Part shown: positions 38 through 44,574 of the stretch, piece by piece
Position numbering within the stretch: position 1 is the first letter of the stretch
How the letters are laid out: each line of letters opens with the position of its first letter
Sequence record: OR062943.1
DNA: 64,000 nucleotides
Reading direction: 5' to 3' (one strand)
Source: Escherichia phage 241Ecol014PP
The notes under the pieces: generated by a model
Seen by the model: only the letters and a program-made list of their open reading frames with translations
Told to the model about the DNA's origin: nothing
The model's database searches: none
Translations under genes and position numbers: made by a program

Positions 38-3000
38 ATGCCAATTGCAATGATTGATAACATCGTTGCTTCTGCAAGATCTTCAAGTTATGACTGGAAC
101 GCATCCAAGGCAGCTCTGGCTGACAGCCTGAACACTGTTACCACCAGAACTCTGGATAAGATTTTTGAGGGCAACAAATCTTACAGAAGTCAGCAAGATA
201 GACAAAAGCTTCTCAGATCTTCTGCTGCACCTTGCTCTGTAGTGTATGGGAAGACACGCACATCCGGATTGCTTGCGTTTTTGGAGCAGGATAGCGACAG
301 AACCCTCCATTGTGCTATTGTTCTTGCTAATCATCCTCTGGAAGGTATAGAAGACATACTCATCGACGGTAATCCTATTTCCTCGTATGGAGATCTGGTA
401 TCGTGGGAGCTACATAACGACAGAAAAACATCTGATCCTTTCATGGGTACACACTGCCCATCATGGTCACCTGACATGATAGGTAGAGGGATTAGTTGGC
501 TACGTGCCAGTTTCAAGTTTGACCCTAACAAGTTTCCTTTTGGGTTGCCAAACGTTACACTCGTTAAGGTTGGTAAAAAATGCTATGATCCTCGTATCAG
601 TAAAGAGGTGTACACCAATAACGCAGCCTTGGTGATCCTAGACTATTTAAGAACGTACCTTAAATGTCCTGACGAAACCATCAACTGGGAGTCCTTTAAG
701 GAGGCTGCCAACATATGCGACGAAGCGGTAAAAAACGCTGACGGAACCAGTGAGCGACGTTACACCATTAACGGTGAGTTCGACATGGATGAGGCTCCAG
801 CAAGTATTATGGCAGAAATGTTGAAAGCTTGTGGTGCAGATCTCAGTTATGTAGCTGGTAAGTATGGTTTGCTGGTTGGTGCATACTATGGCCCGGCAAC
901 AATGACACTGAGTGAGGACTGTGTCTGCGGTGAGGTCAAGATCTATCCGGAAGCCTCGTTTGACAAAAGATCCAACACAATAACTGGCAGATTCACTAGT
1001 CCGACCAAAGGGTATTCTGAAACAGATTTTCCATCAGTGTTTGTCCCAGAGTGGATAGAGAAGGATGGAGAAAGAAAGATAATCGATATAGACTATCGCT
1101 TTGTTACCAGCCCTTATCAAGCTCAGCGTGTTTCTGCAATCTTCTTAAGACGTGCTAGAGCTGGCAGGATTATTGAAGTCACCTGCAATATGCGAGGTTT
1201 TAAATTTAAGCCTGGTCGTTATGTTACAATGGACCTCCCAAGTATTGGTATAGTGGGCCAAGAAATGAGGGTTCTTGAATGGGAGTTCACCAAAAAGGGC
1301 GGTGTCAAGGTAAAACTTCGTCAAGATGCTAAAGAGTGGAATGATGCCACAGGGCAACTTCCGGATTCCGGTGATGTAGATATTCCGATATCCCCGTCCG
1401 GTGTAGCTCAGCCGCAAAACTTCAGATACTCCGTTCTCCAAGCTGGGGAAGTAACTCACGGTGTTTTGGCTTGGGACAACGTTGGGACTTACGCTCAAAA
1501 TATTGTGCAAGTAAGAAAGAACGGAGAGATTGTTTGGACAGCACAGACAGTTGAGCAGTTTGTCAGAGTAGAAGGTTTGACCAAAGGGTCATACACAGCA
1601 ACCGTGGTTGCAACATCTTATAAAGGTGGTGTATCTCCAGAAGCGTACTGTGAGTTTAACATTCAGGCACCTGAAGCTCCGGTTTCTGTAGAGGTTAAGC
1701 AAGGATACTTTGCTATCACCTTGATTCCGCATAGTAGGGATTTAGCAAGTGTTAGCACCCAGTATGACTTTTGGACATCTGGTATGACAAGGTTGCCCGA
1801 CACCAGTGATGCAACCGTTACTTCAAACGCCACCCGTATGGGTGTTGGTTCAACTTGGACATCTGAAGGCCTGCAGAACGATAAGGTTTATTATTGGTAT
1901 ATTCGAACCACAAACGCTTTTGGTAGTTCTCAGTTTGTAGAATGCGCTGCACGTTGCTACACCTCTATTGAGGATTTGATGCCTCAGATAGATGCTGAAT
2001 TCAAAAAGACAGAAACTTATAAAGAGTTGATGAGCACTTTGGATTCCTCTATTGAAGAGGTTGAAAATCGTGTCACAGAACTTAACAGGTACATGGATGG
2101 TAGGGTAGATGAAGCGTTCCAGCAACTTGGGGACAGAATAGGTGCGGTAGTTACAGAAACAACTCAGAAGTTTGAAGATGTCAATGGTAACATTACAGCG
2201 CTGGATAGGAAACTTGTTGCTGCACAGAACAAGTTCACCAACGATCTGAACACTGAAAGTGGAAGATTGGCATCCCTGATTGAGACAACCAATAAAGCAA
2301 CTACTGATCTTCTGAACAAAAAGACAGAGGCTTTAGATGAGAAATTGGTTGCCGCCAAAGGTGAGCTGGTAGAGCAGATAGAGGGAGTTGAGAGCGGGTA
2401 TTTAGCCGGAGATAAAACTCTGGATGGTAAGATCAATACCCAGAGAACAGAACTTGACGCAAGCATCTTGAGCACTAACCAGGCCACTGTGGATCTTTTG
2501 AACAGGACATCTGAAACTCTGGATCAAAAGATCAGTCAGACAAACGCGACGGTATCTAAAAACTATACCACCCTGGATGGCAAGATAACCACCGCAAAAA
2601 CTGACCTCAACACCTTGATTGCCAATACCAACAAGACCACCACTGACTTGTTGAATCAGAAAACATCTGCACTGTCAGAGCAAATAACTTCTGCACGTGG
2701 GGAGATCTCTACCAACAAGCAAGCGATTGATGCTTTGGATGGAAAACTGACCTCCACAAAAACAGCGCTGGATGCTACAATTTCCGATACCAACAAGGCC
2801 ACTGTGGACCTTATCAACGGCACAGCGTCAGCTATTCGTCAAGAACTTGCTGTTGCTAAGCAGGAGATCATTGATGATGTTGGAGATGTGTCCGAGATCA
2901 GGGCTGCAGTAGCTACAACATCTAAGGCTGTGACCGACTTAGAGGGTAAAGTAAATGCTCAGTGGGGCACAAAAATACAGGTAGACTCCGCAGGGAATAA

Positions 3001-3877
3001 ATATGTTGCAGGTATCCAGTTGGGGATGGAAGGGTCTGGGGGCCAAGTTCAATCCTACTTCATGGTTAGTGCAAACAATTTTGCGGTATACAACCCCGGC
3101 AATGGAACAGCAACCCTTGCTTTCGCAATCAAGAACAACCAAGCATTCTTGAAAGACGCTTTTATAGAGAATGGCACGATCTCCTCTGCCAAGATCGCAC
3201 AAGAAATTTCGTCAAACAACTACGATGGCAACGGGTACCATAAATACGGTTGGTATATTAACAAGAACGGGCACGCCCAATTTATGGATGTGTGGGTGAA
3301 AGGCAACATCAACGCTAGTTCTGGTAACTTCACAGGGGCAGTTAACGCCACTAGTGGTACCTTCCGTGGAGATGTTTATGCCAATAATGGTAGCTTCAGG
3401 GGCACCATAGATGCAACCGGAGGTACCTTCCGTGGGCGTGTAGAAGCTTCTGTTATTCGTGCCAACCAGTTTGAAGGTGCAATTGTTGCACACAGGACTT
3501 ACGGGGATTGTGCACCAGTATACAACTCCCGGCAGAGGGTTTGCCGTTGGAGGTGGAGATACGTAGATAACGTTTCAGGTCAGGGTAAGAACGTAACATT
3601 CTTCTTTAAACTGAACGGTACTCGTGCCAACTCCCAACTAAATGCGTGGATAGCTGGTCATCAACTCCTTGCTGGCAAGAAGTACGGAAACGACAACGAT
3701 GGCATGTGTGCAGTTGGGATAACAGGTCTAGGTGAACAAACTATAGACATTATTATTGAAATCTACACCCCGTGGTCAACGTCAAACGTGACAGGTATTA
3801 CAATATCCTGTCCTACTGTGGTTGTTAGTCGTTCTAACTCCAGCTTCCAGGGACCTTGGAACGAGTCTCACGACTAA
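38..3877 (+). CDS. large tail/baseplate-associated fibre protein (host-specificity-like)
   Basis: 1279-aa ORF, GGAGG RBS upstream of ATG; central ~35-aa coiled-coil tandem repeats (LDGKITT..TDLLN), C-terminal TFRG/GxF beta repeats; terminator follows. Confidence 0.6.
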   Translation: MPIAMIDNIVASARSSSYDWNASKAALADSLNTVTTRTLDKIFEGNKSYRSQQDRQKLLRSSAAPCSVVYGKTRTSGLLAFLEQDSDRTLHCAIVLANHPLEGIEDILIDGNPISSYGDLVSWELHNDRKTSDPFMGTHCPSWSPDMIGRGISWLRASFKFDPNKFPFGLPNVTLVKVGKKCYDPRISKEVYTNNAALVILDYLRTYLKCPDETINWESFKEAANICDEAVKNADGTSERRYTINGEFDMDEAPASIMAEMLKACGADLSYVAGKYGLLVGAYYGPATMTLSEDCVCGEVKIYPEASFDKRSNTITGRFTSPTKGYSETDFPSVFVPEWIEKDGERKIIDIDYRFVTSPYQAQRVSAIFLRRARAGRIIEVTCNMRGFKFKPGRYVTMDLPSIGIVGQEMRVLEWEFTKKGGVKVKLRQDAKEWNDATGQLPDSGDVDIPISPSGVAQPQNFRYSVLQAGEVTHGVLAWDNVGTYAQNIVQVRKNGEIVWTAQTVEQFVRVEGLTKGSYTATVVATSYKGGVSPEAYCEFNIQAPEAPVSVEVKQGYFAITLIPHSRDLASVSTQYDFWTSGMTRLPDTSDATVTSNATRMGVGSTWTSEGLQNDKVYYWYIRTTNAFGSSQFVECAARCYTSIEDLMPQIDAEFKKTETYKELMSTLDSSIEEVENRVTELNRYMDGRVDEAFQQLGDRIGAVVTETTQKFEDVNGNITALDRKLVAAQNKFTNDLNTESGRLASLIETTNKATTDLLNKKTEALDEKLVAAKGELVEQIEGVESGYLAGDKTLDGKINTQRTELDASILSTNQATVDLLNRTSETLDQKISQTNATVSKNYTTLDGKITTAKTDLNTLIANTNKTTTDLLNQKTSALSEQITSARGEISTNKQAIDALDGKLTSTKTALDATISDTNKATVDLINGTASAIRQELAVAKQEIIDDVGDVSEIRAAVATTSKAVTDLEGKVNAQWGTKIQVDSAGNKYVAGIQLGMEGSGGQVQSYFMVSANNFAVYNPGNGTATLAFAIKNNQAFLKDAFIENGTISSAKIAQEISSNNYDGNGYHKYGWYINKNGHAQFMDVWVKGNINASSGNFTGAVNATSGTFRGDVYANNGSFRGTIDATGGTFRGRVEASVIRANQFEGAIVAHRTYGDCAPVYNSRQRVCRWRWRYVDNVSGQGKNVTFFFKLNGTRANSQLNAWIAGHQLLAGKKYGNDNDGMCAVGITGLGEQTIDIIIEIYTPWSTSNVTGITISCPTVVVSRSNSSFQGPWNESHD

Positions 3878-33980: not shown

Positions 33981-35350
33981 TGGAAAAAGGGCAGTATGAT
34001 GTAGGCACAGATGCTGCCCTCGTTGCAATCATGAGCGGTGAGAATGTCTTCGTTTCAGGACCTGCAGGTTGTGGGAAGACGTACCTCATCAACATGATCC
34101 AGTCAATGTATGGGGACTCTTGCATAACGGTTGCCCCGACAGGGGTAGCCGCTTTAAACGTTAATGGAGCAACAGCACACCGAACCTTCGATCTTGCAGC
34201 AGGTGTGAGCATGGAGTCAGACTGGACCGCAATAAGGGCAAAAACAGCAAAGCCTTTGAAAAGCAAGGCATTTACCATCCTAATTATCGATGAAATCTCT
34301 ATGATCCGTGCTGATAAGTTTATAGAGATGGATAGGAAACTTCGCTTCCTTCGAAAAAATGACAAACCTTTCGGAGGCATACAGGTCATATTGTTTGGCG
34401 ATTTTTACCAGGCACCTCCTGTTGTCTCTTCTATGGAGAAGGAGGCCTACTTCAACTTCTACCATACAGACCTGTGTTGCTATACCGAATCTTGGAAAGA
34501 GCTTGACCTCCACAACATAGCCCTAATAGATCAGTTCCGACAGGAGTCTATTCGATTTGCCACAATGCTCAACTGTGTTCGTGAGGGTCGTCGCATAAAA
34601 GAGGTTGTAGCAGAGCTTAATGCTCGCTGTTACAAAGGTGGTGTACCAACAGACGCTCTCACAATTTGCGCCACCAACAAACAAGCAGAGGAAGTGAACA
34701 GAAGGTTCTATGATGCCATCAACGCCCCAGAGAAGGTATACACTGGTGAAATGAAGGGTAAGTTTCCCTCCACCCTGCCAGTTGAGCAGGAGATGAAGTT
34801 GAAAATTGGCATGAAAGTTATGATAACCGCCAACGATGTTGACCCGACGCACAAAGTACCTTATTATGTTAACGGAACACGTGCCACAATTGTTAAATTT
34901 AAGAACAAGGCGGTGGTGGTAGAGCTTGAAGATGGAACACAGGTTGACATAGAGCAGAGGTTATGGGAGAATAACGAGTATAAGCCATCTCAGAGATACA
35001 ACATTGCAGAAAGGAAGATGGAGAAGTTTATAGAGAGGGTAGTGATTGGGTCATACAAGCAACTTCCTCTGAAATCTGGGTACGCCGTAACATCTCATAA
35101 AAGTCAAGGACTTACGCTAGATTGTTACAACCTAGACCTTGGAAAGAACGGAGCTTTCTCTCCTGGGATGACATATGTCGCTTTGAGTAGAGTTAAGACA
35201 ATACAAGGAATAAACTTGTTGCGTCCACTAAGAGAAGTTGACATTATTGTTGACCCGCGAGTCGTAGAGTTTTACAATACAACATTCCCTGACTTAGACA
35301 AAATTGTCAGGAAAGATTTTGAAACCAGAGCCGAAGAGGGGGACGTATGA
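33980..35350 (+). CDS. Dda/RecD/Pif1-like SF1B DNA helicase
   Basis: Walker A GPAGCGKTY, Walker B IIDEISM, C-terminal VTSHKSQGLT motif; 456 aa. Confidence 0.65.
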   Translation: MEKGQYDVGTDAALVAIMSGENVFVSGPAGCGKTYLINMIQSMYGDSCITVAPTGVAALNVNGATAHRTFDLAAGVSMESDWTAIRAKTAKPLKSKAFTILIIDEISMIRADKFIEMDRKLRFLRKNDKPFGGIQVILFGDFYQAPPVVSSMEKEAYFNFYHTDLCCYTESWKELDLHNIALIDQFRQESIRFATMLNCVREGRRIKEVVAELNARCYKGGVPTDALTICATNKQAEEVNRRFYDAINAPEKVYTGEMKGKFPSTLPVEQEMKLKIGMKVMITANDVDPTHKVPYYVNGTRATIVKFKNKAVVVELEDGTQVDIEQRLWENNEYKPSQRYNIAERKMEKFIERVVIGSYKQLPLKSGYAVTSHKSQGLTLDCYNLDLGKNGAFSPGMTYVALSRVKTIQGINLLRPLREVDIIVDPRVVEFYNTTFPDLDKIVRKDFETRAEEGDV

Positions 35351-35688
35351 GTTTGTGGAGAAATATAGTTAACTACGTGTGTGGCAATCCAACTCCTGAA
35401 GAGAAGGATGTTGTGATTCACGATTTTACTAAAAGATCTCGTGAAAAAGATCTACTGCTAACAAAGGTGACTGATAAAGATCCTGCAGTAGGGGACTGGG
35501 CAGGTTTTGCGTTCACATCGGACAAATACACCTTTAACAAAGGTGACTACCTTGTTGTGGATTTTAACGAGGACATCGAGGGTGCTGAACCTTACTATCA
35601 GACCCTTATCGTTGCAGGGTGTGTTAATCTCTCTGCAGGTGTGCACAGTTTGATTCTTTTTGAGCTTGACTCTGAAGACCTCCAGTAG
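35347..35688 (+). CDS. hypothetical protein
   Basis: 113-aa ORF. Confidence 0.4.
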   Translation: MSLWRNIVNYVCGNPTPEEKDVVIHDFTKRSREKDLLLTKVTDKDPAVGDWAGFAFTSDKYTFNKGDYLVVDFNEDIEGAEPYYQTLIVAGCVNLSAGVHSLILFELDSEDLQ

Positions 35689-35748
35689 TAAGATGTGAGT
35701 ATAAAGGGGAGGCACTCCTCCCCACAAAAACTAAGGAAGCACTGAACG

Positions 35749-36051
35749 ATGAAACGTTATAAACCATACACTTTTGAAATCGATTTCGAACTTGACGATA
35801 TGTTCACTGTAGAAGCTCAGGCAGTTGTCCAGTTGCCAGACCCGGAGTGCCGTGATTCTGATGTTGACTATTACGGATTTAGACAAATTACCGATGTGCA
35901 TGTTTACCACAACGGTGAAGAGGTGGACTTCCACAAACTGCCAAACGATATGCGCCACTCAATTTACAAACGTGCAGCCCGTGAACTAGAGTCCTATCTG
36001 GATGCAGCGACGACAGCAGCTGCATTTGCTGAAGAAGTGGGAGGTTTCTGA
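35749..36051 (+). CDS. hypothetical protein
   Basis: 100-aa ORF with AAGGAAG RBS. Confidence 0.4.
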   Translation: MKRYKPYTFEIDFELDDMFTVEAQAVVQLPDPECRDSDVDYYGFRQITDVHVYHNGEEVDFHKLPNDMRHSIYKRAARELESYLDAATTAAAFAEEVGGF

Positions 36052-36446
36052 TGATTACAGGTGTGAAGGTTATCCAATACCACTTAACCAAATTGGAAGA
36101 TGCTGAAAAAGAGCTTGCAGAAGTTCTGAATAGTGGATATACTTTGCTATCATGCGCCTGCTCAGACACCTACGTTGTGTGGACACTTATCCGGAAGGAA
36201 GAGCCTGCAGGGATCTTGGTGCCAAACCATAAGATTATTAGTGAGGTGGATGACTACTCTCAGGACGGACTGCCGGAAGTATGGGAAGTATGGGAAGGTG
36301 GTGAAAATCCTGCACCAGGTAAGTGGGTAAAATACAAACTACGTAGCGGTGCACAGTACGCTGACTACTCTGATGACCTAGACTGGAGTCATTCTTCACC
36401 AGGATCATCTGCAAGTTCATATGATATCATAGCTTTTCAGGAATAA
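36051..36446 (+). CDS. hypothetical protein
   Basis: 131-aa ORF, start overlaps upstream stop. Confidence 0.4.
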   Translation: MITGVKVIQYHLTKLEDAEKELAEVLNSGYTLLSCACSDTYVVWTLIRKEEPAGILVPNHKIISEVDDYSQDGLPEVWEVWEGGENPAPGKWVKYKLRSGAQYADYSDDLDWSHSSPGSSASSYDIIAFQE

Positions 36447-36458
36447 GGAGAAGAAGGT

Positions 36459-36941
36459 ATGTCAGATTTTATGTGGAAAGTAGGTTACGCAACCCCTGAA
36501 ATGTGTGAGGCTTGCTTTGTTAAAATAGGCCGCGAGGATATCGACAAAGTGATCCTTAAGTTTCGTGATGTGGCTGTGATCGGCAACCGAGTGCTTAAGC
36601 ACTTAAAGAATCTGAAGCTCACCAAAAAGAAGTTCTTCGGACTTTTCGAAGAGAAGGTTGATGCTTGGACTCATTGCATTCAGGAAGCCAAATCTCACTA
36701 CAGTGCCATCGTTACTCCAGAACGGGTAGCAAAGATGGAAGGATTCATCAACAGCACAGAATTTGAGTGCCTAAAGGCTGCCCTTGATAGCTATCCAAAG
36801 TGCCTCAAACACCTTGACAAGTATGCAGAAAAGGATGGTGAAATGTATCTCACCCTGGACGCATATTATGAGATGCAAGAAATTTTAAATTTAGATTTGA
36901 CATTGGTATCCACCGAGTATACAATAGGTATCCGGGTTTAA
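36459..36941 (+). CDS. hypothetical protein
   Basis: 160-aa ORF, AAGGAGAAG RBS. Confidence 0.4.
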   Translation: MSDFMWKVGYATPEMCEACFVKIGREDIDKVILKFRDVAVIGNRVLKHLKNLKLTKKKFFGLFEEKVDAWTHCIQEAKSHYSAIVTPERVAKMEGFINSTEFECLKAALDSYPKCLKHLDKYAEKDGEMYLTLDAYYEMQEILNLDLTLVSTEYTIGIRV

Positions 36942-36947
36942 CACTAG

Positions 36948-36974
36948 GCCCTGCCCGAAAGGGTGGGGCTTTTT
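36948..36974 (+). terminator. rho-independent terminator
   Basis: GCCCTGCCC-GAAA-GGGTGGGGC with GAAA tetraloop then TTTTT; same hairpin recurs at 49592. Confidence 0.65.
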
Positions 36975-36992
36975 GCATTAGGAGACAGCAAA

Positions 36993-37757
36993 TTGAAATT
37001 TATCTACAAAGAACACTACCACAAAGGTGTTGTGTGGAGTCTATTTGACGGATCTGGTGGTGCAGTCATTGACTGGGCAAAAGCTGGGTACCTGTGCCTG
37101 TGCTTTAATGCAGAAGGTGCTGATCACGGCAGTTATGCAGAGGTGATAACCGATCATCACAACATTCACTATGTGGATTATTGGATTGACCCATGGTTCC
37201 CTCAGGAAACTTTTTGCATGTACCCAGCTCCAGACTTTATTCTTGCATTTCCTCCGTGCACGCATTTAGCGGTATCGGGTGCTGCACATTTTAAGAAAAA
37301 GCTGGCTAAGGACCCCATGATCCAAATTAATGCTGTAAAGGATGCTCGGGTTGCGGAAGAGCTGGGAGAGATTTACGATTGCCCGTGGCATGTAGAGAAT
37401 CCTGTTGGTGTTATGTCCACACTGTGGCGCAAACCTGATTACCGTTTTCATCCTTCTGACTATGGCGGGTATTTACCGGAGGATGATGTAAACCCCTGGT
37501 TTCCTGAATTTATAGCTCCACGTGATGCCTATCCAAAAATAACTTGCGGCTGGATAGGTAATGGATTTATAATCCCGGCCACAAAACCTGTCCCGCAAAT
37601 AGTTGACGCGGTTAGTGGGTATTCAATGCAACACGCCAAGCTGGGTGGAAAGAGTGCAAGAACGAAGATGATTCGAAGCCTCACACCACGTGGCTGGGCA
37701 AAAGCCGTATTCTTAGCAAACGAGCCTGCAGTAAGGAGCAGAATTAATGGGAAGTAA
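36993..37757 (+). CDS. C5-cytosine methyltransferase-like protein (compact, no obvious target-recognition domain)
   Basis: TTG 36993 after AGGAGA (track ORF starts inside the terminator); motif I LFDGSGGA, motif IV-like FPPCTHLAVSG, motif VI-like HVENPVG. Confidence 0.4.
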   Translation: MKFIYKEHYHKGVVWSLFDGSGGAVIDWAKAGYLCLCFNAEGADHGSYAEVITDHHNIHYVDYWIDPWFPQETFCMYPAPDFILAFPPCTHLAVSGAAHFKKKLAKDPMIQINAVKDARVAEELGEIYDCPWHVENPVGVMSTLWRKPDYRFHPSDYGGYLPEDDVNPWFPEFIAPRDAYPKITCGWIGNGFIIPATKPVPQIVDAVSGYSMQHAKLGGKSARTKMIRSLTPRGWAKAVFLANEPAVRSRINGK

Positions 37758-39825
37758 ATTTATGGCATCTGCATACAACCGTTTCGGTGAGCCAAACCCG
37801 GTTGCAACAAGATACAAAAGTGGGGGTAGTATGAAACGAGACTATCGTGATGAAAAAGAGGTTGAAACTGTAGAGACTGTTTTAGAAAATACTAAAATTG
37901 TCCCTGTCCCACAACAAAATATCGGTCTGATGGCTGCACAATATTTTGGTGTGCGATCAGCATTGTCCCAAGAAGACGGTGTGACAGTCACTGCAACATA
38001 TTTCCCATATTACGACCGCTACGGGAATCTGTCCGGTTTCAAAAAGCGTGACTGGACTAAGCCGAAAGAGCAGAAAGGACACTGGTCTGTAGTAGGCATC
38101 GTAAAGGCCAACTCCCAGATGTTTGGTCAAAAGTTGTGTGCATCTTCCAACAACCGTAAGCAGATTAACGTTTGTGAGGGGGAAGGCGATGTTATTGCAG
38201 CATGGCAGGCTGCATATCAGATACAGGTAAAAGGGATTCTCACCAACGCTAAAGCTCCGGCAAAGGTGAAGCAGTGGGCTAAAGAGGTCCAGGACGGGAT
38301 CGACGCAGTTATCAACGGTGGTGATCTGGCAGGAAAACCCTGCCTGCCTTTTGTTGGAATTAACTGTGGATGTGCAAACGCAGTAGATACTTTTGCAAAC
38401 AATGAGAAGTTTATCCGTAGCTATGGAACAGTTGTGCTGGCAATGGATAACGATGCAGCTAACGAGGTAGAAAAGCAAAAACACGTCATTAAAGGTGTTG
38501 AGGCAACTCACAATATCGCAGCATTTTTGATGGCTGATAACGTTTACCACGTAGAATATCCCGGTGAGGTAAACGATCCTGACGGTGTAAAAGATATCCG
38601 TGACATGCTGAAGGCTAAAAAGCTAGAAGATATTGTCAACATGTTCCGGCATCCTGTTAAATATGTACCTGATGCTGTGTCGGATTTAGAAGACTTCTCT
38701 ATCGAGTCTTTGCGGAAAAAGACTTCCAACGGGGTGGATATCAGCGCAGAGTTCCCAAAACTGCAAAAAATGCTAAAAGGCTTGCACAAAGGGACACTCG
38801 TAATGCTTACAGGTCCATCGGGGGGCGGTAAAACAACTATAGCTAAAAAACTGGAACACTGTATTGCAAGATACCTAATGGACCCAACATGCCCGAAGGC
38901 TGATGACTACGAGGAGGATGATCGTCTATGCATGATCCATCTTGAGGAGGACCCAGAGGAAGCAATTAACTCCTTGTATGCAAACCAGTTGGGGTTCGAT
39001 GTTAAAGAGTTTGTTGAAGATCCTAGCCGGTTTTTAACTGATCAGGAACACGCAGAGATTCACCAATCATGGGCAAAAGCCGGAAAAATCAAAGTGTTCA
39101 AACATTTCGGGTCTATTCCGGTGGACGAGTTGATTACCAAGCTTAAGCAAATGGTTTGCCTGTACCATTGCCGTTATATTGTGCTGGATCACCTGTCCAT
39201 GGTAATTTCAGGGCTTAATGTTAAGGATGAGCGAAAAGAACTGGACATGGCTATGACCCAACTGGCTGCGTTTTGTAAGCAGTTTAATGTGTTTATCTTG
39301 GTGATCGCTCACCTCAAACGTACAGAGATTGTGCCCCCTAAGGACAAGGATGGTAACCCGTTACCTTTCTGGTATCCTGTGCGAAAAGAGAATTTGCGAG
39401 GATCGGCTGGGCTTGAGCAGTTGAGTTGGGTAGTCATAGGTGTCGAGGCCGAAGAAATGGTGGATCGTTCTCGTGGGCGTGTCCGTCTGGTAAGTCTTAA
39501 AAACCGTCCAGCAAAAACTTTAGGTATTGCTGACACTTTAGTTATGGACCCGCACACAGGTAAGTTCCATGATGCCAGTAATTGGTACTGGGACAAAGAA
39601 ATGCAGATGTTTACAGACGGAGAAGGTGGGGAGGTTGTTTGGAGACCTCAGGCTATGTTTGAGGATCAGGAGCATGCAGTTGTAGAAACACCTGTTGGCA
39701 AGGTTGTGGCTGATAAGGTTGTAACTTCTACTGTTAAACCTGTTGACACGCAGGAAGACCTCCAGTACGATGATCCATCCTCTGACCCTGTCCCTGGTTT
39801 TGAGGATGATGAAACGCCTTTTTAA
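37747..39825 (+). CDS. primase-helicase (T7 gp4-like: TOPRIM + DnaB-type helicase)
   Basis: TOPRIM CEGEGDVIAAW and LAMDNDAAN; Walker A GPSGGGKTT; 692 aa; no N-terminal Cys4 zinc ribbon. Confidence 0.7.
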   Translation: MGSKFMASAYNRFGEPNPVATRYKSGGSMKRDYRDEKEVETVETVLENTKIVPVPQQNIGLMAAQYFGVRSALSQEDGVTVTATYFPYYDRYGNLSGFKKRDWTKPKEQKGHWSVVGIVKANSQMFGQKLCASSNNRKQINVCEGEGDVIAAWQAAYQIQVKGILTNAKAPAKVKQWAKEVQDGIDAVINGGDLAGKPCLPFVGINCGCANAVDTFANNEKFIRSYGTVVLAMDNDAANEVEKQKHVIKGVEATHNIAAFLMADNVYHVEYPGEVNDPDGVKDIRDMLKAKKLEDIVNMFRHPVKYVPDAVSDLEDFSIESLRKKTSNGVDISAEFPKLQKMLKGLHKGTLVMLTGPSGGGKTTIAKKLEHCIARYLMDPTCPKADDYEEDDRLCMIHLEEDPEEAINSLYANQLGFDVKEFVEDPSRFLTDQEHAEIHQSWAKAGKIKVFKHFGSIPVDELITKLKQMVCLYHCRYIVLDHLSMVISGLNVKDERKELDMAMTQLAAFCKQFNVFILVIAHLKRTEIVPPKDKDGNPLPFWYPVRKENLRGSAGLEQLSWVVIGVEAEEMVDRSRGRVRLVSLKNRPAKTLGIADTLVMDPHTGKFHDASNWYWDKEMQMFTDGEGGEVVWRPQAMFEDQEHAVVETPVGKVVADKVVTSTVKPVDTQEDLQYDDPSSDPVPGFEDDETPF

Positions 39826-39883: not shown

Positions 39884-42800
39884 ATGAGCATGTATAGCTT
39901 CGATTTTGAGGCCTCCGGGCTTTTGGAAGACCCAGATCTTTATTACCACTGCGGCCTGTTTAAAGAGCTGAATAAGAACCGTTTTATGCTGTTCCTCCCT
40001 CTAAATGACCGCACACACTACTCCGAGGAGGATATAGAGAAGGCTAAGAACTTCATTCTGGCAAAGAAAACTCTTTATAAAGATTTTGAAGTTCGCATAG
40101 CAGATTTTTCGGAGTTGGAAGGTTGGCTTACAGGCAATTCCGACTGGTCACCAACAGCTTTGAACTGCCATAACTGCTACAGTTATGACTTTATGCTGAT
40201 GGAGAAATTATCCGGTATTCATTTTGATATGTTCCGTGATCCTAAATGCATGGGTACTATCAACGATCACCAGGTTAACCTGTTCGATACGTTGGCGATG
40301 AGCCGAATCTTGTGGCCTGATCGCCCTTTACCAAAAGGTTGTCCGGACTCTGTATTCAACCCGGTTACTAAGAAAATGCAGCCTGTTGGTGCCCACGGCC
40401 TTATGGCATGGGGCTACGCCCTTGGTAACCAGAAAGTTCAAATTGATGACTGGCGTGATCTTCCGTTGTGGAAGTATGTGGATCGTGTATTCGAGGACGT
40501 TATCATCCAGGAGCTGCTCTGGAAAGAGCTGGTAGCGGAATCAAAAGGTGTATTCTACGGCAAATCTGACATGCAGAACTTTATGTACGATCCTGCCAAA
40601 GAGAAGCCGAAAGGGTTCAAGAAGATCACCTGGAAGAACGCATTACGCCGGGGTATGCTGCAGCACTTCCTGATGGAGCTGCAGGCCCGTCAGGGTGTAT
40701 ACTTCGACATAGATGGAGCTATTGCTTTACGTGACCGTTGCGATGCGTGGATGAAAGAGATCGCTGATCGTGTTGAACCTCAACTTCCTTTAAAAGAGTT
40801 GTCAATGTCTCAGCGGCCCAAGTTCCCTGAAAAGCCGTTTAACCAAGATGGGACAATCTCCAATAATGGTTGGAAATGGTTAAAAGATAAGCTTGGCTAT
40901 CCTGTGGACATGAGTGCTTTAGAGTTCAAAGCCCCGCCTAAGCGAGCATTTACCTCCACAGGAGATGTCAGCAAGATGGGGATAAAATGGTGTGAAGAGA
41001 TGGGCTGCAAAGACCCCGATAAGATGGCTGATTTCTTGAGAGGCTATATTAAGGGCACTTCCACACCACACCCTTTACCTAAAGAGCTGATGGATCAGGC
41101 GATAAGTGATCTACAGCAGAAGCGAATGCCGGACTGCAAGATACCTATGAAAATCAGCAATCAGGACGACATTAAGCGATACCTGATCAGTGCTGGTTGG
41201 CTTCCGACAATGTGGAGAACTAAGGATGTAACTAAAGACAGCAAGAAGAAAGCTCTACCTGATGCAGATGTTGATGCACGAGTATATGCATATATGGACG
41301 AGCTTTTAGAGTCAGAGTATTGTGATCTGATTATCAACTTCTGGAACAAAACTGATGCTAAGTTCCAGACAACCGTGCACAAGTTCCGAAGCTTTCCTAA
41401 CTCCGAAAGGATTAAAAAGGAAGTGTTCGGGAAAATACGTAGAAAAGCCAGAGCACTTATTACTTCTCCGCAGCTGAAAGATACGTTTGGACACCTATGC
41501 CCAAATCTTGAAAAATTGAACGGAGAGATGGCTAAAGATATCGTCTTGTGGTTATCATTGCGAAACCGCAGATCGGTCCTTGATCCAATCAAGGAGGATA
41601 AGGTTGATACTGGTCTTCTTAATCACCCACGTTTGAAGATTGACCATAAGCTTCCTGCTAAAAGTTCTGGGTTAACAAACACTTCCCGACAGAAACACAG
41701 TATTTGTGCAAACATGCCTAAACCATCTCCTAAAGTGGTTATGGGTAAAGAGATGCGTAGTCTGTGGGGTGTTCCTCCAGGATACTTTGAGATCGGTATT
41801 GACGGGTCCAACTTAGAGCAGCTTATCGGGGCTTGGGGTGCCTTTGAGTTCGACAACGGCCTGTATTATGATGTTGTAAGTAACGGCGATGCACACTGTT
41901 ATTCAGGAGATACACAAATTCTCACGGAGAAAGGGTGGGTGAGGTTTGAAGATCTTGATCCGGGAACACAAGTGTTCCAGTACGATCACAACACCTCGTC
42001 GATGAACCTTGTTACTCCATTAAATTACGTTAAGCGTAGTTATTGTGGGGATATGTATCATTTCCACAACAGCAGTGTGGATTTTATGGTTACAGATCAA
42101 CACAGGATGCTGACCGTGGATCACAGAAGCAATAAATTGTTTGAAGATTTGGCAAAAGACCTGAAAGCAGGTAAAGGGTCTAATTCAGGAAGAAGGTTTA
42201 TCCATGCGGCAGAGTTTTATGGGAATACAACCTTATCTCCTGCCCAGATTAATTTGCTTATTGCTATTCACGATGATGGGCACTTGCATACAAATAAGGA
42301 CGGCAGCATCGTGTGCAGGATTCAGGTCGGGAAGGGCAGAAAAGTTGCAACGCTTTTAGATACTTTTTCTGCTCTAAGCCTTAGTTATGTAGAGCAGAGC
42401 GGGAAAACCACAAAAGGGGGCTTACTGGCGAGAAGGTTCCAATTCCACGTTCCGTCCTGGGTATTTGAGTTTTTGGACAGCAATAAGGATTTCACCTACA
42501 ACCTGATGGACCTTGATAAAGAATCTAAAAACCTGTTTATAGCTTCTTTATCTAACTGGGACGGATGGGTATCTTCCGAAGGTGGAAAAGTTGCCTACTA
42601 CTCTCAGTCCGAGTGCAGGAAGAAATCTGTAGAGGTTGTGTCTGCGCTGGCTACTCAGTGTGGTTTACGGAATAATACGGTGGCGATTCACAAAAAAGGT
42701 CGTTCCGTACAGCACAGAATCACGATTGGTAGCAAACAGAGAGCAGGGTTGCTGACACTATCTAAAGAGTCTGTCGAGGTGAGTGGTTCTTTGGTTTATT

Positions 42801-43276
42801 GCGTTACCGTCCCTTCTGGAGCAATCATTGTGAGAAGGAATGGTAAAGTGGCAGTGTGCGGTAACTGTAATAACGCCAAAGCTTACTCTTCTGTAGCAGG
42901 CAAGGAGATTTCCCGTAACGATGGTAAGCCTGTCACGTATGGGGTTATGTACGGGGCACAAAAAGATAAAGTTGCAGATATGCTGGATATCTCCCCAGAG
43001 TTGGGGCAAAGGGTGATCGATGCACTTTGGGATGCCAACCCCGGTCTTAAGGGGCGCAAAGAGGATCTGGAGAAATTCTGGGAAGCAACAGGTAAGAAGT
43101 TTATCTACTCTTTTGATGGTCATGCTATCTGGACTCGATCTAAACACTCTTTACTTAATGCATACCAACAAAATGGTGGTGCATCGCTGTGTGACTTAGT
43201 TGGGATACTCATGCACCACCAAATGGTGAAGCGTGGGTGGTACGATGAAGGTGTTCGTCGTATTATTTATTACCAT
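39884..43276 (+). CDS. family-A DNA polymerase, exon 1 (contains intein)
   Basis: Exo I FDFEASGL; motif A-like IDGSNLEQL; motif B-like RNDGKPVTYGVMYGA; ORF stops 2 codons after the His expected to begin motif C (HDE). Confidence 0.7.
41897..42865 (+). mobile_element. intein (323 aa) within DNA polymerase, putative LAGLIDADG endonuclease core
   Basis: in-frame insert between motifs A and B: starts CYSGDTQILTEKG, block B-like VTDQHRM, ends VYCVTV..NGKVAVCGN with +1 Cys; LLIAIHDDGHL and FIASLSNWDGW candidate LAGLIDADG motifs. Confidence 0.65.
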
Positions 43277-43552
43277 AAATAACATTGTGGCTTCATAGAG
43301 TAATCTATGTCGAATAACCTCTTTAACTGCGGGAAGCCTAAACCTTATGGCAAGGTAATCCGCAACGAAGCGCTCAAAAGAGCGAACGCTCAGAGGCCAT
43401 TCCGAAAGGAAGTAGACCAGCAAGTGCGGTCGAAATGGGAGGATTCCTGTGGTTGCTTATCATAGGAATATGAGATGGTCCGATCCTACGTGAAAACGTA
43501 TGGCTATGCACGTAATGGTGCGGGGTAGCTTAACGACCTACCTGAACTATTG
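43277..43552 (+). mobile_element. group I self-splicing intron (ORF-less) in DNA polymerase gene
   Basis: 276 nt; exon 1 ends ..CCAU pairing with GUGG guide at 43287-43290; P-like CTGCGGGAAG 43327, Q-like AATCCGCAAC 43357, P7 AGACCA 43414 / TGGTC 43476; last nt G; joins H|DE of motif C. Confidence 0.6.
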
Positions 43553-43906
43553 GATGAGTACCAAATTCAAGTCCCTGACACGCCTAAGTATAAGACTGTG
43601 TACACCTTCGACACAATTGAAGAACTGGAAGCATTTAAGGCAGAGCAGGAGGCCAAACTTCATGTGTTTGACGGTCATAAGTACAAAAAGGCACGCAAGG
43701 ATGAGAACGGAAACGAAGTGGTTGACAGAGACGGAAACACGGTGTACGATCCTATCCTGAACGATGACGGAAAGCTTGAACTTATCTGGAGCCCTGTGGG
43801 TGAAATGGTGGTGCATTGCTTCTGGCAAGCTTCTAAAATGATGGGCGTCCCGTTCCAGATCACAGGTGAATACTTGTGTGGGGCTAATTGGGGTAGTTGC
43901 CATTGA
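43553..43906 (+). CDS. family-A DNA polymerase, exon 2 (C-terminal part)
   Basis: begins DEYQIQV (motif C DE), ends GANWGSCH resembling the family-A C-terminus; no RBS or ATG of its own. Confidence 0.6.
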   Translation, partial: DEYQIQVPDTPKYKTVYTFDTIEELEAFKAEQEAKLHVFDGHKYKKARKDENGNEVVDRDGNTVYDPILNDDGKLELIWSPVGEMVVHCFWQASKMMGVPFQITGEYLCGANWGSCH

Positions 43907-43926
43907 TCTGATAAGAGATATTTGCT

Positions 43927-44574
43927 ATGGAAGAATGGAGAAAACTGGTTGGCAGGGAGGCCAACTATGAAGTTAGCAGTAAAGGAAGGATTAAAAGGCT
44001 GTCTTACCTGAGGAAGTACAGTAACCAAACAGGTAAAGTTACTTTCAAAGCTGTCCCTGACAGGATTTTAAAAGGTAGCGTAGACAGTAGCGGTTACATT
44101 CAAGTAAATGTAGATGGAAGATCGGAATTGCTTCACAGGTTAATTGCCGAGACCTTTCTAGAGCCTCCTTCAAAAGAGCTTGTAGAGGAATGTAAGGCAG
44201 CAGGGCTGGACTATGTGCCGATCAATCATAAAGACCATAACCGCCTAAACAATGCTGCTGACAACCTTGAATGGGCCTCGCCTTCAAAAAATGCACAAGA
44301 TGTGGACTACGACTACCATAAAACAAGAGGGGAAAGTTCATACTGTGCAAAACTTAAAGAGCGAGATGTTGACGAAATATTAAAGCTTTCCAAAACAGGT
44401 ATGTCACAGCAAGCTATAGCAGATCTTTTCGGTGTTAATCAGATAACCATTTCCAATATCTTGACAGGTAGGAGTTGGGCATGGTACACTGGGATACCTA
44501 AAACCGCAAGGTGTAAAAACAAAAGGGGGAGATCCCCGAAAAGCATGTCTGAGCAAAATTTCTCTGTAAGCTGA
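43927..44574 (+). CDS. HNH homing endonuclease (NUMOD4-like N-term, HTH C-term)
   Basis: EEWRKLVG..YEVSSKGRIKR N-terminus; INHKDHNRLNN..NLEW HNH core; C-terminal MSQQAIADLFGVNQITISNIL helix-turn-helix. Confidence 0.6.
   Translation: MEEWRKLVGREANYEVSSKGRIKRLSYLRKYSNQTGKVTFKAVPDRILKGSVDSSGYIQVNVDGRSELLHRLIAETFLEPPSKELVEECKAAGLDYVPINHKDHNRLNNAADNLEWASPSKNAQDVDYDYHKTRGESSYCAKLKERDVDEILKLSKTGMSQQAIADLFGVNQITISNILTGRSWAWYTGIPKTARCKNKRGRSPKSMSEQNFSVS

Follow-up and report, generated by a model that had tools for sequence, protein, structure and literature searches.

The gene analysed here lies at positions 36993-37757 on the plus strand of a 64,000-nucleotide (nt) stretch of Escherichia phage 241Ecol014PP (sequence record OR062943.1), which we refer to as the window. 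The open reading frame (ORF) starts with TTG, ends with its stop codon at 37757 and encodes a protein of 254 amino acids (aa) that belongs to a family of compact Dcm-like DNA C5-cytosine methyltransferases. A Shine-Dalgarno sequence, AGGAG, was read from the sequence at 36980..36984 on the same strand, with a spacer of 8 nt to the TTG. Start and end are identical in the annotation of phage DrSchubert (bas50_0075), and the protein cluster P0001 (254 aa, 98% identity) uses the same boundaries. A GTG at 36963 was rejected as start codon because it lies inside a terminator-like hairpin and because annotated relatives and protein clusters use the TTG at 36993.

The protein carries motif I, the Pro-Cys motif and the Glu-Asn motif in the order of C5-cytosine methyltransferases, as had been recognised in a preceding sequence-only reading of the window. 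Motif I (LFDGSGGA, aa 17-24, nt 37041-37064) represents the glycine loop that binds S-adenosylmethionine (SAM) after strand beta-1, and aligns to motif I of DNMT3A/3B, M.HaeIII and the Pfam family PF00145. Motif IV (FPPCTHLAVSG, aa 86-96, nt 37248-37280), with the catalytic nucleophile Cys89, aligns to SPCNDLS of DNMT3A, and motif VI (HVENPVG, aa 133-139, nt 37389-37409) contains Glu135. A family-specific conserved block follows at aa 141-200 (nt 37413..37592; WRKPD.F.P..YGGYL...HP......DAY.K.TC.W.GNGF.MP), closed by a motif VIII-like strand YPKITCGWIGNGF (nt 37530-37568; strand aa 184-189 in the structural model). The C-terminal motif IX/X-like segment IRSLTPRGWAKAVF (nt 37671..37712) runs into the final helix (aa 233-251 in the model) and resembles motif X of DNMT3, GRSWSVPV. 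All these elements lie on the plus strand. Conservation was counted in 70 family representatives with 28-54% identity to the window protein. Pro137 is present in all 70, Glu135 in 68, and Cys89 and Asn136 in 67 each; further downstream Lys182 (67/70), Trp187 (69/70), Arg228 (68/70), P232 (66/70) and Gly234 (68/70) are similarly kept. Judged from this alignment, the matches to motif I, the Pro-Cys motif and ENPV are not due to chance, because Cys89, Glu135, Asn136 and Pro137 are retained in 67-70 of 70 such diverged sequences.

The sequence-only reading had also pointed out that the protein leaves little room for target recognition, and this was borne out by the family alignment, in which the median length is 240 aa and only aa 201-217 (nt 37593..37643, plus strand) are poorly conserved after ENPV. 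This most variable segment behind the catalytic core shows a mean column entropy of ~3.3 bits and an occupancy of 0.74, and the predicted local distance difference test score (pLDDT) of the model falls to 69-78 there. It is flanked by the kept strand YPK.TC.W.GNGF (aa 180-192) and the C-terminal motif LGG.S..TK.IRS.TPRG[FW]A.AVF, and is the sole candidate for a vestigial target-recognition loop. At the place of a classical target-recognition domain (TRD), the motif VIII-like strand is separated from the C-terminal motif by no more than aa 193-226. In the classical enzymes M.HhaI and M.HaeIII a separate TRD of ~80-100 aa follows motif VIII and precedes motif IX, and motifs IX and X are distinct from each other; the window protein offers ~17-35 residues there and one fused motif, IRSLTPRGW..AVF. 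The strand Y-P-K-[K/R/I]-T-C-x-W, with the kept K182, was likened to motif VIII by motif resemblance, not by structural alignment. K.TC.W.GN may thus correspond to motif VIII of DNMT3 (RARYFWGN) and TPRGW to its motif X (GRSW); this equivalence stays tentative because alignment with hhalign gave no residue-level mapping in these parts. The family profile aligned to a single DNMT3A sequence over motifs I-IV only, with a probability of 53%, and the same comparison with a single M.HhaI sequence gave nothing useful.

A profile search assigned the window protein to PHROG 757 'DNA methyltransferase' (E 1.8e-86, aa 2-251 against profile positions 5-226 of 247). An exhaustive search detected 1,018 homologous representatives at 50% identity (E<=1e-3), nearly all of them 210-260 aa long, and a large protein collection contained 3,549 homologous clusters, mostly from enterobacterial phages and prophages. 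By tblastn the family was found in ~1,500 phage genomes, most of which infect Escherichia, Klebsiella, Salmonella or Shigella. They include Drexlerviridae, Dhillonvirus, Kagunavirus, the Krischvirus RB49 and large Salmonella myoviruses, together with some phages of Vibrio, Shewanella, Aeromonas and Arthrobacter. Among longer family members, a search for additional recognition or DNA-binding domains revealed a single fusion, to HNH_2. One bacterial copy (P0065) lacks a nuclease partner and is located in the nin region of a lambdoid prophage, where its neighbours are a Dam-type methylase, NinG, RusA and an antiterminator. The narrow length range of the representatives and the prophage copy without a nuclease partner show that compactness is common to the whole family and that the family is orphan and phage-borne.

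The gene and its surroundings are widespread in close relatives. Over the 3.9 kb around the gene, identity to Vequintavirus (rV5-like) coliphages, among them nomine, DrSchubert (Bas50), JeffSchatz and V18, is 96-97%, and 120 phage records matched this region; the gene is intact in ~115 Vequintavirus records with 95-99% protein identity. DrSchubert bas50_0075 is labelled "Dcm-like C5 cytosine methyltransferase", while other records call the coding sequence "putative site specific DNA methylase", "DNA methyltransferase" or "hypothetical protein". The gene is therefore already in public annotation and the compact Dcm-like methyltransferase is already known: the window protein is a real member of this family and no unrecognised oddity, as near-identical proteins in GenBank carry the label of Dcm-like C5 methyltransferases.

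Structural modelling supported this assignment. The AlphaFold model of the window protein reached a pLDDT of 87 and a predicted template modelling score of 0.87, and a Foldseek search with it returned the catalytic domains of DNMT3A/3B as top matches (E 8e-6, probability 1.0). The closest folds are enzymes with a small TRD, namely DNMT3B/3A and CmoX. At the level of the predicted structure, the link to the Rossmann fold of C5-methyltransferases is clear. DNMT3A and DNMT3B share a very small recognition region with the window protein, and motif IV of DNMT3A (PCNDL) is alike to PCTDL/PCTHL of the phage family. However, sequence identity to DNMT3A/3B is only 13-16%, the window protein is without the regulatory domains of DNMT3 and no DNMT3L-type partner is known, and the phage family has its own kept insert (aa 141-180) between motifs VI and VIII. 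The E. coli enzyme Dcm and M.EcoRII (CCWGG, PF00145) belong to the same superfamily and share the chemistry, and both the label 'Dcm-like' and the assumption of a CCWGG site derive from analogy with them. With ~470 aa and a large TRD, E. coli Dcm is about twice as long as the window protein, which is not its ortholog, matches neither PF00145 nor an NCBIfam model and has no vsr-like neighbour in the annotation.

Functional data are available for a homolog in the same family. Phage KarlJaspers (Bas06, Hanrivervirus, Drexlerviridae) encodes a single "Dcm-like C5 cytosine methyltransferase" gene of 711 bp (bas06_0055, gp55), whose product falls into PHROG 757 like the window protein; BLASTP showed 54% identity over 235 aa (E 1e-86) between the two. 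The experiments were performed with the Dcm of phage K42, which shares 95.4% genome identity with KarlJaspers/Bas06 and has a dcm of the same length and residue numbering, whereas our sequence comparison used the KarlJaspers protein. All four K42 escapers (4/4) of retron Ec86 (Eco1) were mutated in the 711-bp dcm, expression of K42 Dcm was toxic only when Ec86 was present, and Dcm is encoded by 34 of 35 Ec86-sensitive phages (Wang et al., bioRxiv 10.1101/2023.08.16.553469). In the same study the retron's msDNA (multicopy single-stranded DNA) from cells expressing K42 Dcm contained high 5-methylcytosine (5mC) by liquid chromatography-mass spectrometry, and a quadruple mutant (C82A/E128A/K175A/K176A) abolished it (bioRxiv 10.1101/2023.08.16.553469). 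Three of these four residues are kept in the window protein (C82 as C89, E128 as E135 and K175 as K182), and K176 is replaced by Ile183. From the identity of 54% and the aligned C82, E128 and K175, the window protein is, by sequence, a clear homolog of an enzyme shown to form 5mC in DNA.

Both proteins come from lytic coliphages, are orphan, fall into the same compact length class (236 aa in KarlJaspers, 254 aa in the window) and end in TKMIRSLTPRG[FW]A.AVF. They differ in their origin, a T1-like siphovirus for KarlJaspers and a Vequintavirus myovirus for the window, and in several parts of the sequence. The window protein has 12 extra aa at the N-terminus and 11 at the C-terminus, a His for Asp after PPCT and an Ile for the second Lys (K176), and its variable loop reads GYSMQHAKLGG, with a small insertion, where KarlJaspers has DNPGWAKTGG. 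Retron triggering and 5mC formation are known for K42 Dcm, whereas the window protein is known here from its sequence and model.

Taken together, these results make it likely that the gene encodes an active orphan SAM-dependent DNA cytosine-C5 methyltransferase, a member of the compact phage Dcm-like family (PHROG 757). That this particular protein is active, which site it recognises and how it benefits the phage are inferred. The enzyme would be expressed with the replication module, since its gene overlaps that of a primase/helicase and precedes the DNA polymerase gene. It would bind SAM via motif I (F18-x-G20-x-G22); the target cytosine would be flipped out, Cys89 would attack C6, Glu135 of ENPV would protonate N3 and the methyl group would be transferred to C5. 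Defined sites would be expected to carry 5mC, both in phage DNA during its replication and in the DNA of the host and the retron. In a minimal layout like that of DNMT3, the block aa 141-200 and the loop aa 201-217 would have to supply the DNA contacts in place of a TRD. The likely gain would be protection from restriction enzymes that are blocked by 5mC, for example of the EcoRII type if the site is CCWGG, and the likely cost would be that the activity is sensed by retron Ec86/Eco1.

Several observations weigh against this reading. The check by profile search that had been proposed gave a divided answer: PHROG 757 was matched strongly, but the Pfam scan of the window protein gave no PF00145 match even at E<=10 (gathering threshold 22 bits) and the NCBIfam scan nothing relevant. 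Across the family, 14 of 22 members matched PF00145 at E<=1, and of 8 members scanned singly three (P0054, P0071 and P0075) passed the gathering score with 24.7-28.5 bits, over profile positions 4-94 of 324 only, which correspond to motifs I-IV. Sequence and profile searches against PDB sequences likewise revealed only non-significant matches to DNMT3B, HaeIII and DNMT2 in motifs I-IV, so that at the sequence level the link of the compact family to C5-methyltransferases is thin. Two positions of the window protein depart from the family, His for the consensus D91 and Ile183 at the equivalent of K176. Our literature search found no methylome or biochemical data for a Vequintavirus ortholog and nothing that joins Vequintavirus with CCWGG. 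Two published observations point in the same direction: 5mC was low in the msDNA of dcm+ MG1655 when the phage enzyme was absent (bioRxiv 10.1101/2023.08.16.553469), and BASEL phenotyping found Vequintavirinae to be "exceptionally susceptible" to restriction-modification (RM) systems (PMC8594841).

This susceptibility bears on the earlier proposal of a minimal DNA-modification enzyme for anti-restriction. The first half of it fits, because the protein matches PHROG 757 and has a homolog that makes 5mC in DNA; the second half does not sit well with the exceptional RM sensitivity of Vequintavirinae (PMC8594841). As no broad effect is visible in these phages, any protection by the window enzyme must be narrow. 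The BASEL data also show no simple link between the methyltransferase genes of Drexlerviridae and restriction resistance, and the literature search returned no direct methylome or restriction measurement for the C5 methyltransferases of Drexlerviridae. The only demonstrated consequence of the activity of a family member is the triggering of retron Ec86 (bioRxiv 10.1101/2023.08.16.553469).

The recognition site is where the competing explanations survive best. CCWGG was assumed by the K42 authors by analogy with host Dcm, and was tested by mutations of CCTGG in the msDNA stem only, a stem that also contacts the effector (bioRxiv 10.1101/2023.08.16.553469). For the window enzyme CCWGG is likewise assumed by analogy. 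The window contains 117 CCWGG sites, an observed/expected ratio of 0.77; as other GC-rich palindromes behave alike, this depletion is uninformative on specificity. The enzyme could instead be a C5-cytosine DNA methyltransferase that does not read CCWGG but a short or degenerate motif, or a DNA structure such as hairpins, replication intermediates or single strands. We regard this as possible, with the balance tilted against it. DNMT3, which reads CpG, and CmoX, which needs only a GC motif, are precedents for short motifs, and the small-TRD enzymes DNMT3B/3A and CmoX are also the closest folds. The loop of ~17 residues differs between the window protein (..PQIVDAVSGYSMQHAKLGG) and KarlJaspers (..LPKEDDKDNPGWAKTGG). 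Host Dcm in MG1655 neither gave high msDNA 5mC nor triggered Ec86, which the phage K42 enzyme did, and such low 5mC in a dcm+ host would be odd if the phage site were the host Dcm site. The design of the msDNA-stem test, described above, also leaves space for another site. On the other side, all three CCTGG mutations in msDNA abolished defence, as expected for CCWGG, and the BASEL annotators chose the label 'Dcm-like'. Dense or promiscuous methylation is disfavoured as well: McrBC cuts at R-5mC sites, and relatives of the phage plate on mcrBC+ MG1655.

A related proposal concerns the whole family, namely that it represents a DNMT3-like minimal C5-methyltransferase and not an analogue of Dcm, and that a very short or structure-dependent target is read through the conserved block aa 141-200 and the loop of ~17 residues. 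We put this forward tentatively.

The enzyme might also transfer another group, for example a carboxymethyl group from carboxy-S-adenosylmethionine (Cx-SAM) supplied by CmoA, to give 5-carboxymethylcytosine (5cxmC), as does CmoX, the phage DNA cytosine C5-carboxymethyltransferase (333 aa, PDB 8yf3). CmoX owes its selectivity to an Arg (R350) that replaces the Asn of motif X in M.HhaI, and CmoA of E. coli supports 5cxmC in vivo; in the window protein Arg233 of the motif X-like segment TPRGW, present in 50 of 70 representatives, may be the counterpart of R350, and the rank of CmoX among the closest folds is the other hint at such a transfer. The SPPC motif of CmoX corresponds to FPPC in the window protein, the product of the K42 homolog is 5mC, and DNMT3A has an Arg at the corresponding position of GRSW yet uses SAM. 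Genes for CmoX are usually linked to cmoA and cmoY, whereas the four ORFs upstream and the gene downstream of the window gene gave no match to cmoA or cmoY, and no CmoA or amide-ligase gene is annotated in the flanking 4 kb of relatives. This makes carboxymethyl transfer very improbable. Even more doubtful is an RNA methyltransferase of the DNMT2 kind that would form m5C in host or phage tRNAs, as the homolog methylates msDNA and the gene stands in a DNA replication module, where it overlaps the primase/helicase gene. Least credible is a modifier of nucleotides (dCMP/dCTP), which the sequence-only reading had offered as its alternative, or a catalytically dead DNA-binding remnant: the small size, the lack of a recognisable TRD, the score below the Pfam threshold and the two substituted consensus residues would suit it, but known dCMP methylases and hydroxymethylases have the thymidylate-synthase fold, whereas the window protein has the Rossmann-type fold of DNA/RNA C5-methyltransferases and its homolog acts on polymeric msDNA, on which grounds nucleotide-level modification was rejected; the catalytic Cys, the Glu and the SAM loop are intact and strongly conserved, and the restriction sensitivity of Vequintavirinae disfavours global base replacement.

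The active DNA cytosine-C5 methyltransferase remains the preferred reading, and the arrangement of its gene is consistent with expression together with the replication genes. The downstream gene (37747..39825, plus strand) encodes a DNA primase/helicase of 692 aa (PHROG 239, E 3.5e-160), which is annotated so in relatives, and its ATG lies in the last 11 nt of the methyltransferase coding sequence. Because of this overlap, the two genes are probably co-transcribed and translationally linked. In Vequintavirus, Dhillonvirus and Kagunavirus, which are unrelated groups, the gene for the compact enzyme adjoins or overlaps one for a helicase or primase/helicase, and in KarlJaspers a helicase gene is found two genes away. 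The compact methyltransferase family is recurrently linked to the replication module.

Upstream of the gene, a sigma-70-like promoter match (TTGACA-17-TACAAT, 11/12; 36897..36925, plus strand) is located within the 3' end of the preceding gene. It is a consensus match only; chance alone would give 6.1 matches of at least 9/12 in the 4.6 kb scanned, in which 8 were found, this one being the best. This predicted promoter may drive the methyltransferase and the replication genes. A terminator scan and folding further revealed a terminator-like element (36946..36976, plus strand) that consists of a GC-rich hairpin with an 11-bp stem and a GAAA loop (36946-36971; -21.8 kcal/mol, z = -3.0) followed by a T-run. 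The hairpin comes directly after the stop codon of the upstream gene, between the promoter match and the ribosome-binding site of the methyltransferase gene. The order is odd, as the hairpin follows ~20 nt past the -10 box of the promoter match and precedes the ribosome-binding site. It might end the upstream transcription unit, act as a 5' stabilising hairpin or serve as an attenuator.

Small ORFs further upstream have weak matches to families labelled as DNA-modifying or DNA-joining enzymes. The ORF 35749-36051 (plus strand, 100 aa) belongs to PHROG 4240 (unknown function) and has a weak second match (E 1e-5) to PHROG 1573 'DNA methyltransferase', which covers the C-terminal part of that profile; the ORFs 35347-35688 and 36051-36446 show weak matches to small PHROGs labelled 'DNA ligase'. 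These PHROG 1573 and 'DNA ligase' labels are probably annotation noise. In DrSchubert, a 1.33-kb gene annotated as 'putative N6 adenine methyltransferase' (2408-3733 of the extracted DrSchubert region, L001) sits between the homologs of ORFs 35347-35688 and 35749-36051. The window is without this gene, with the junction at 35689-35752, and tblastn detected no copy of the N6 adenine methyltransferase in the 64 kb of the window. In the related phage Bas51, an N6 adenine methyltransferase, which may be the ortholog of the DrSchubert gene, triggers the retrons Asa1/Squ1; adenine methylation was quantified in the motifs GATC and GTAC (PMC12548924). Among the short palindromes counted in the window, GTAC shows the strongest depletion (136 observed, 207 expected, ratio 0.66). 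If the missing N6 adenine methyltransferase methylates GTAC, the depletion may be tied to its absence.

Comparison with DrSchubert also revealed three extra segments of ~1.0, 0.3 and 0.7 kb in the window (~41896-42893, ~43276-43566 and ~43894-44572), in and just past the DNA polymerase region, which could be homing-endonuclease or other mobile insertions. Among the records that match the region around the methyltransferase gene, 16 are named 'Campylobacter phage' (MG065654, MG065655, MG065666 and others, 135-140 kb) and are ~96% identical to it. This identity to an rV5-like region suggests that their hosts are mislabelled or that they represent contaminating coliphages.

The gene itself is ordinary, and the main interest that remains is how an enzyme almost without a TRD recognises DNA. 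If the family reads its target in a minimal, DNMT3-like way, this would explain why msDNA is methylated and the retron triggered by the phage enzyme and not by host Dcm, and the Vequintavirus clade, with its own loop, its D-to-H and its K-to-I substitutions, would have its own specificity. With more than 3,500 clusters the compact family is very abundant, yet it is missed by Pfam and NCBIfam, and it is known to trigger retron Ec86/Eco1. If the site and the activity of the Vequintavirus enzyme were known, it would be easier to predict which restriction systems, type IV systems and retrons target these phages of broad host range, which are popular for therapy.

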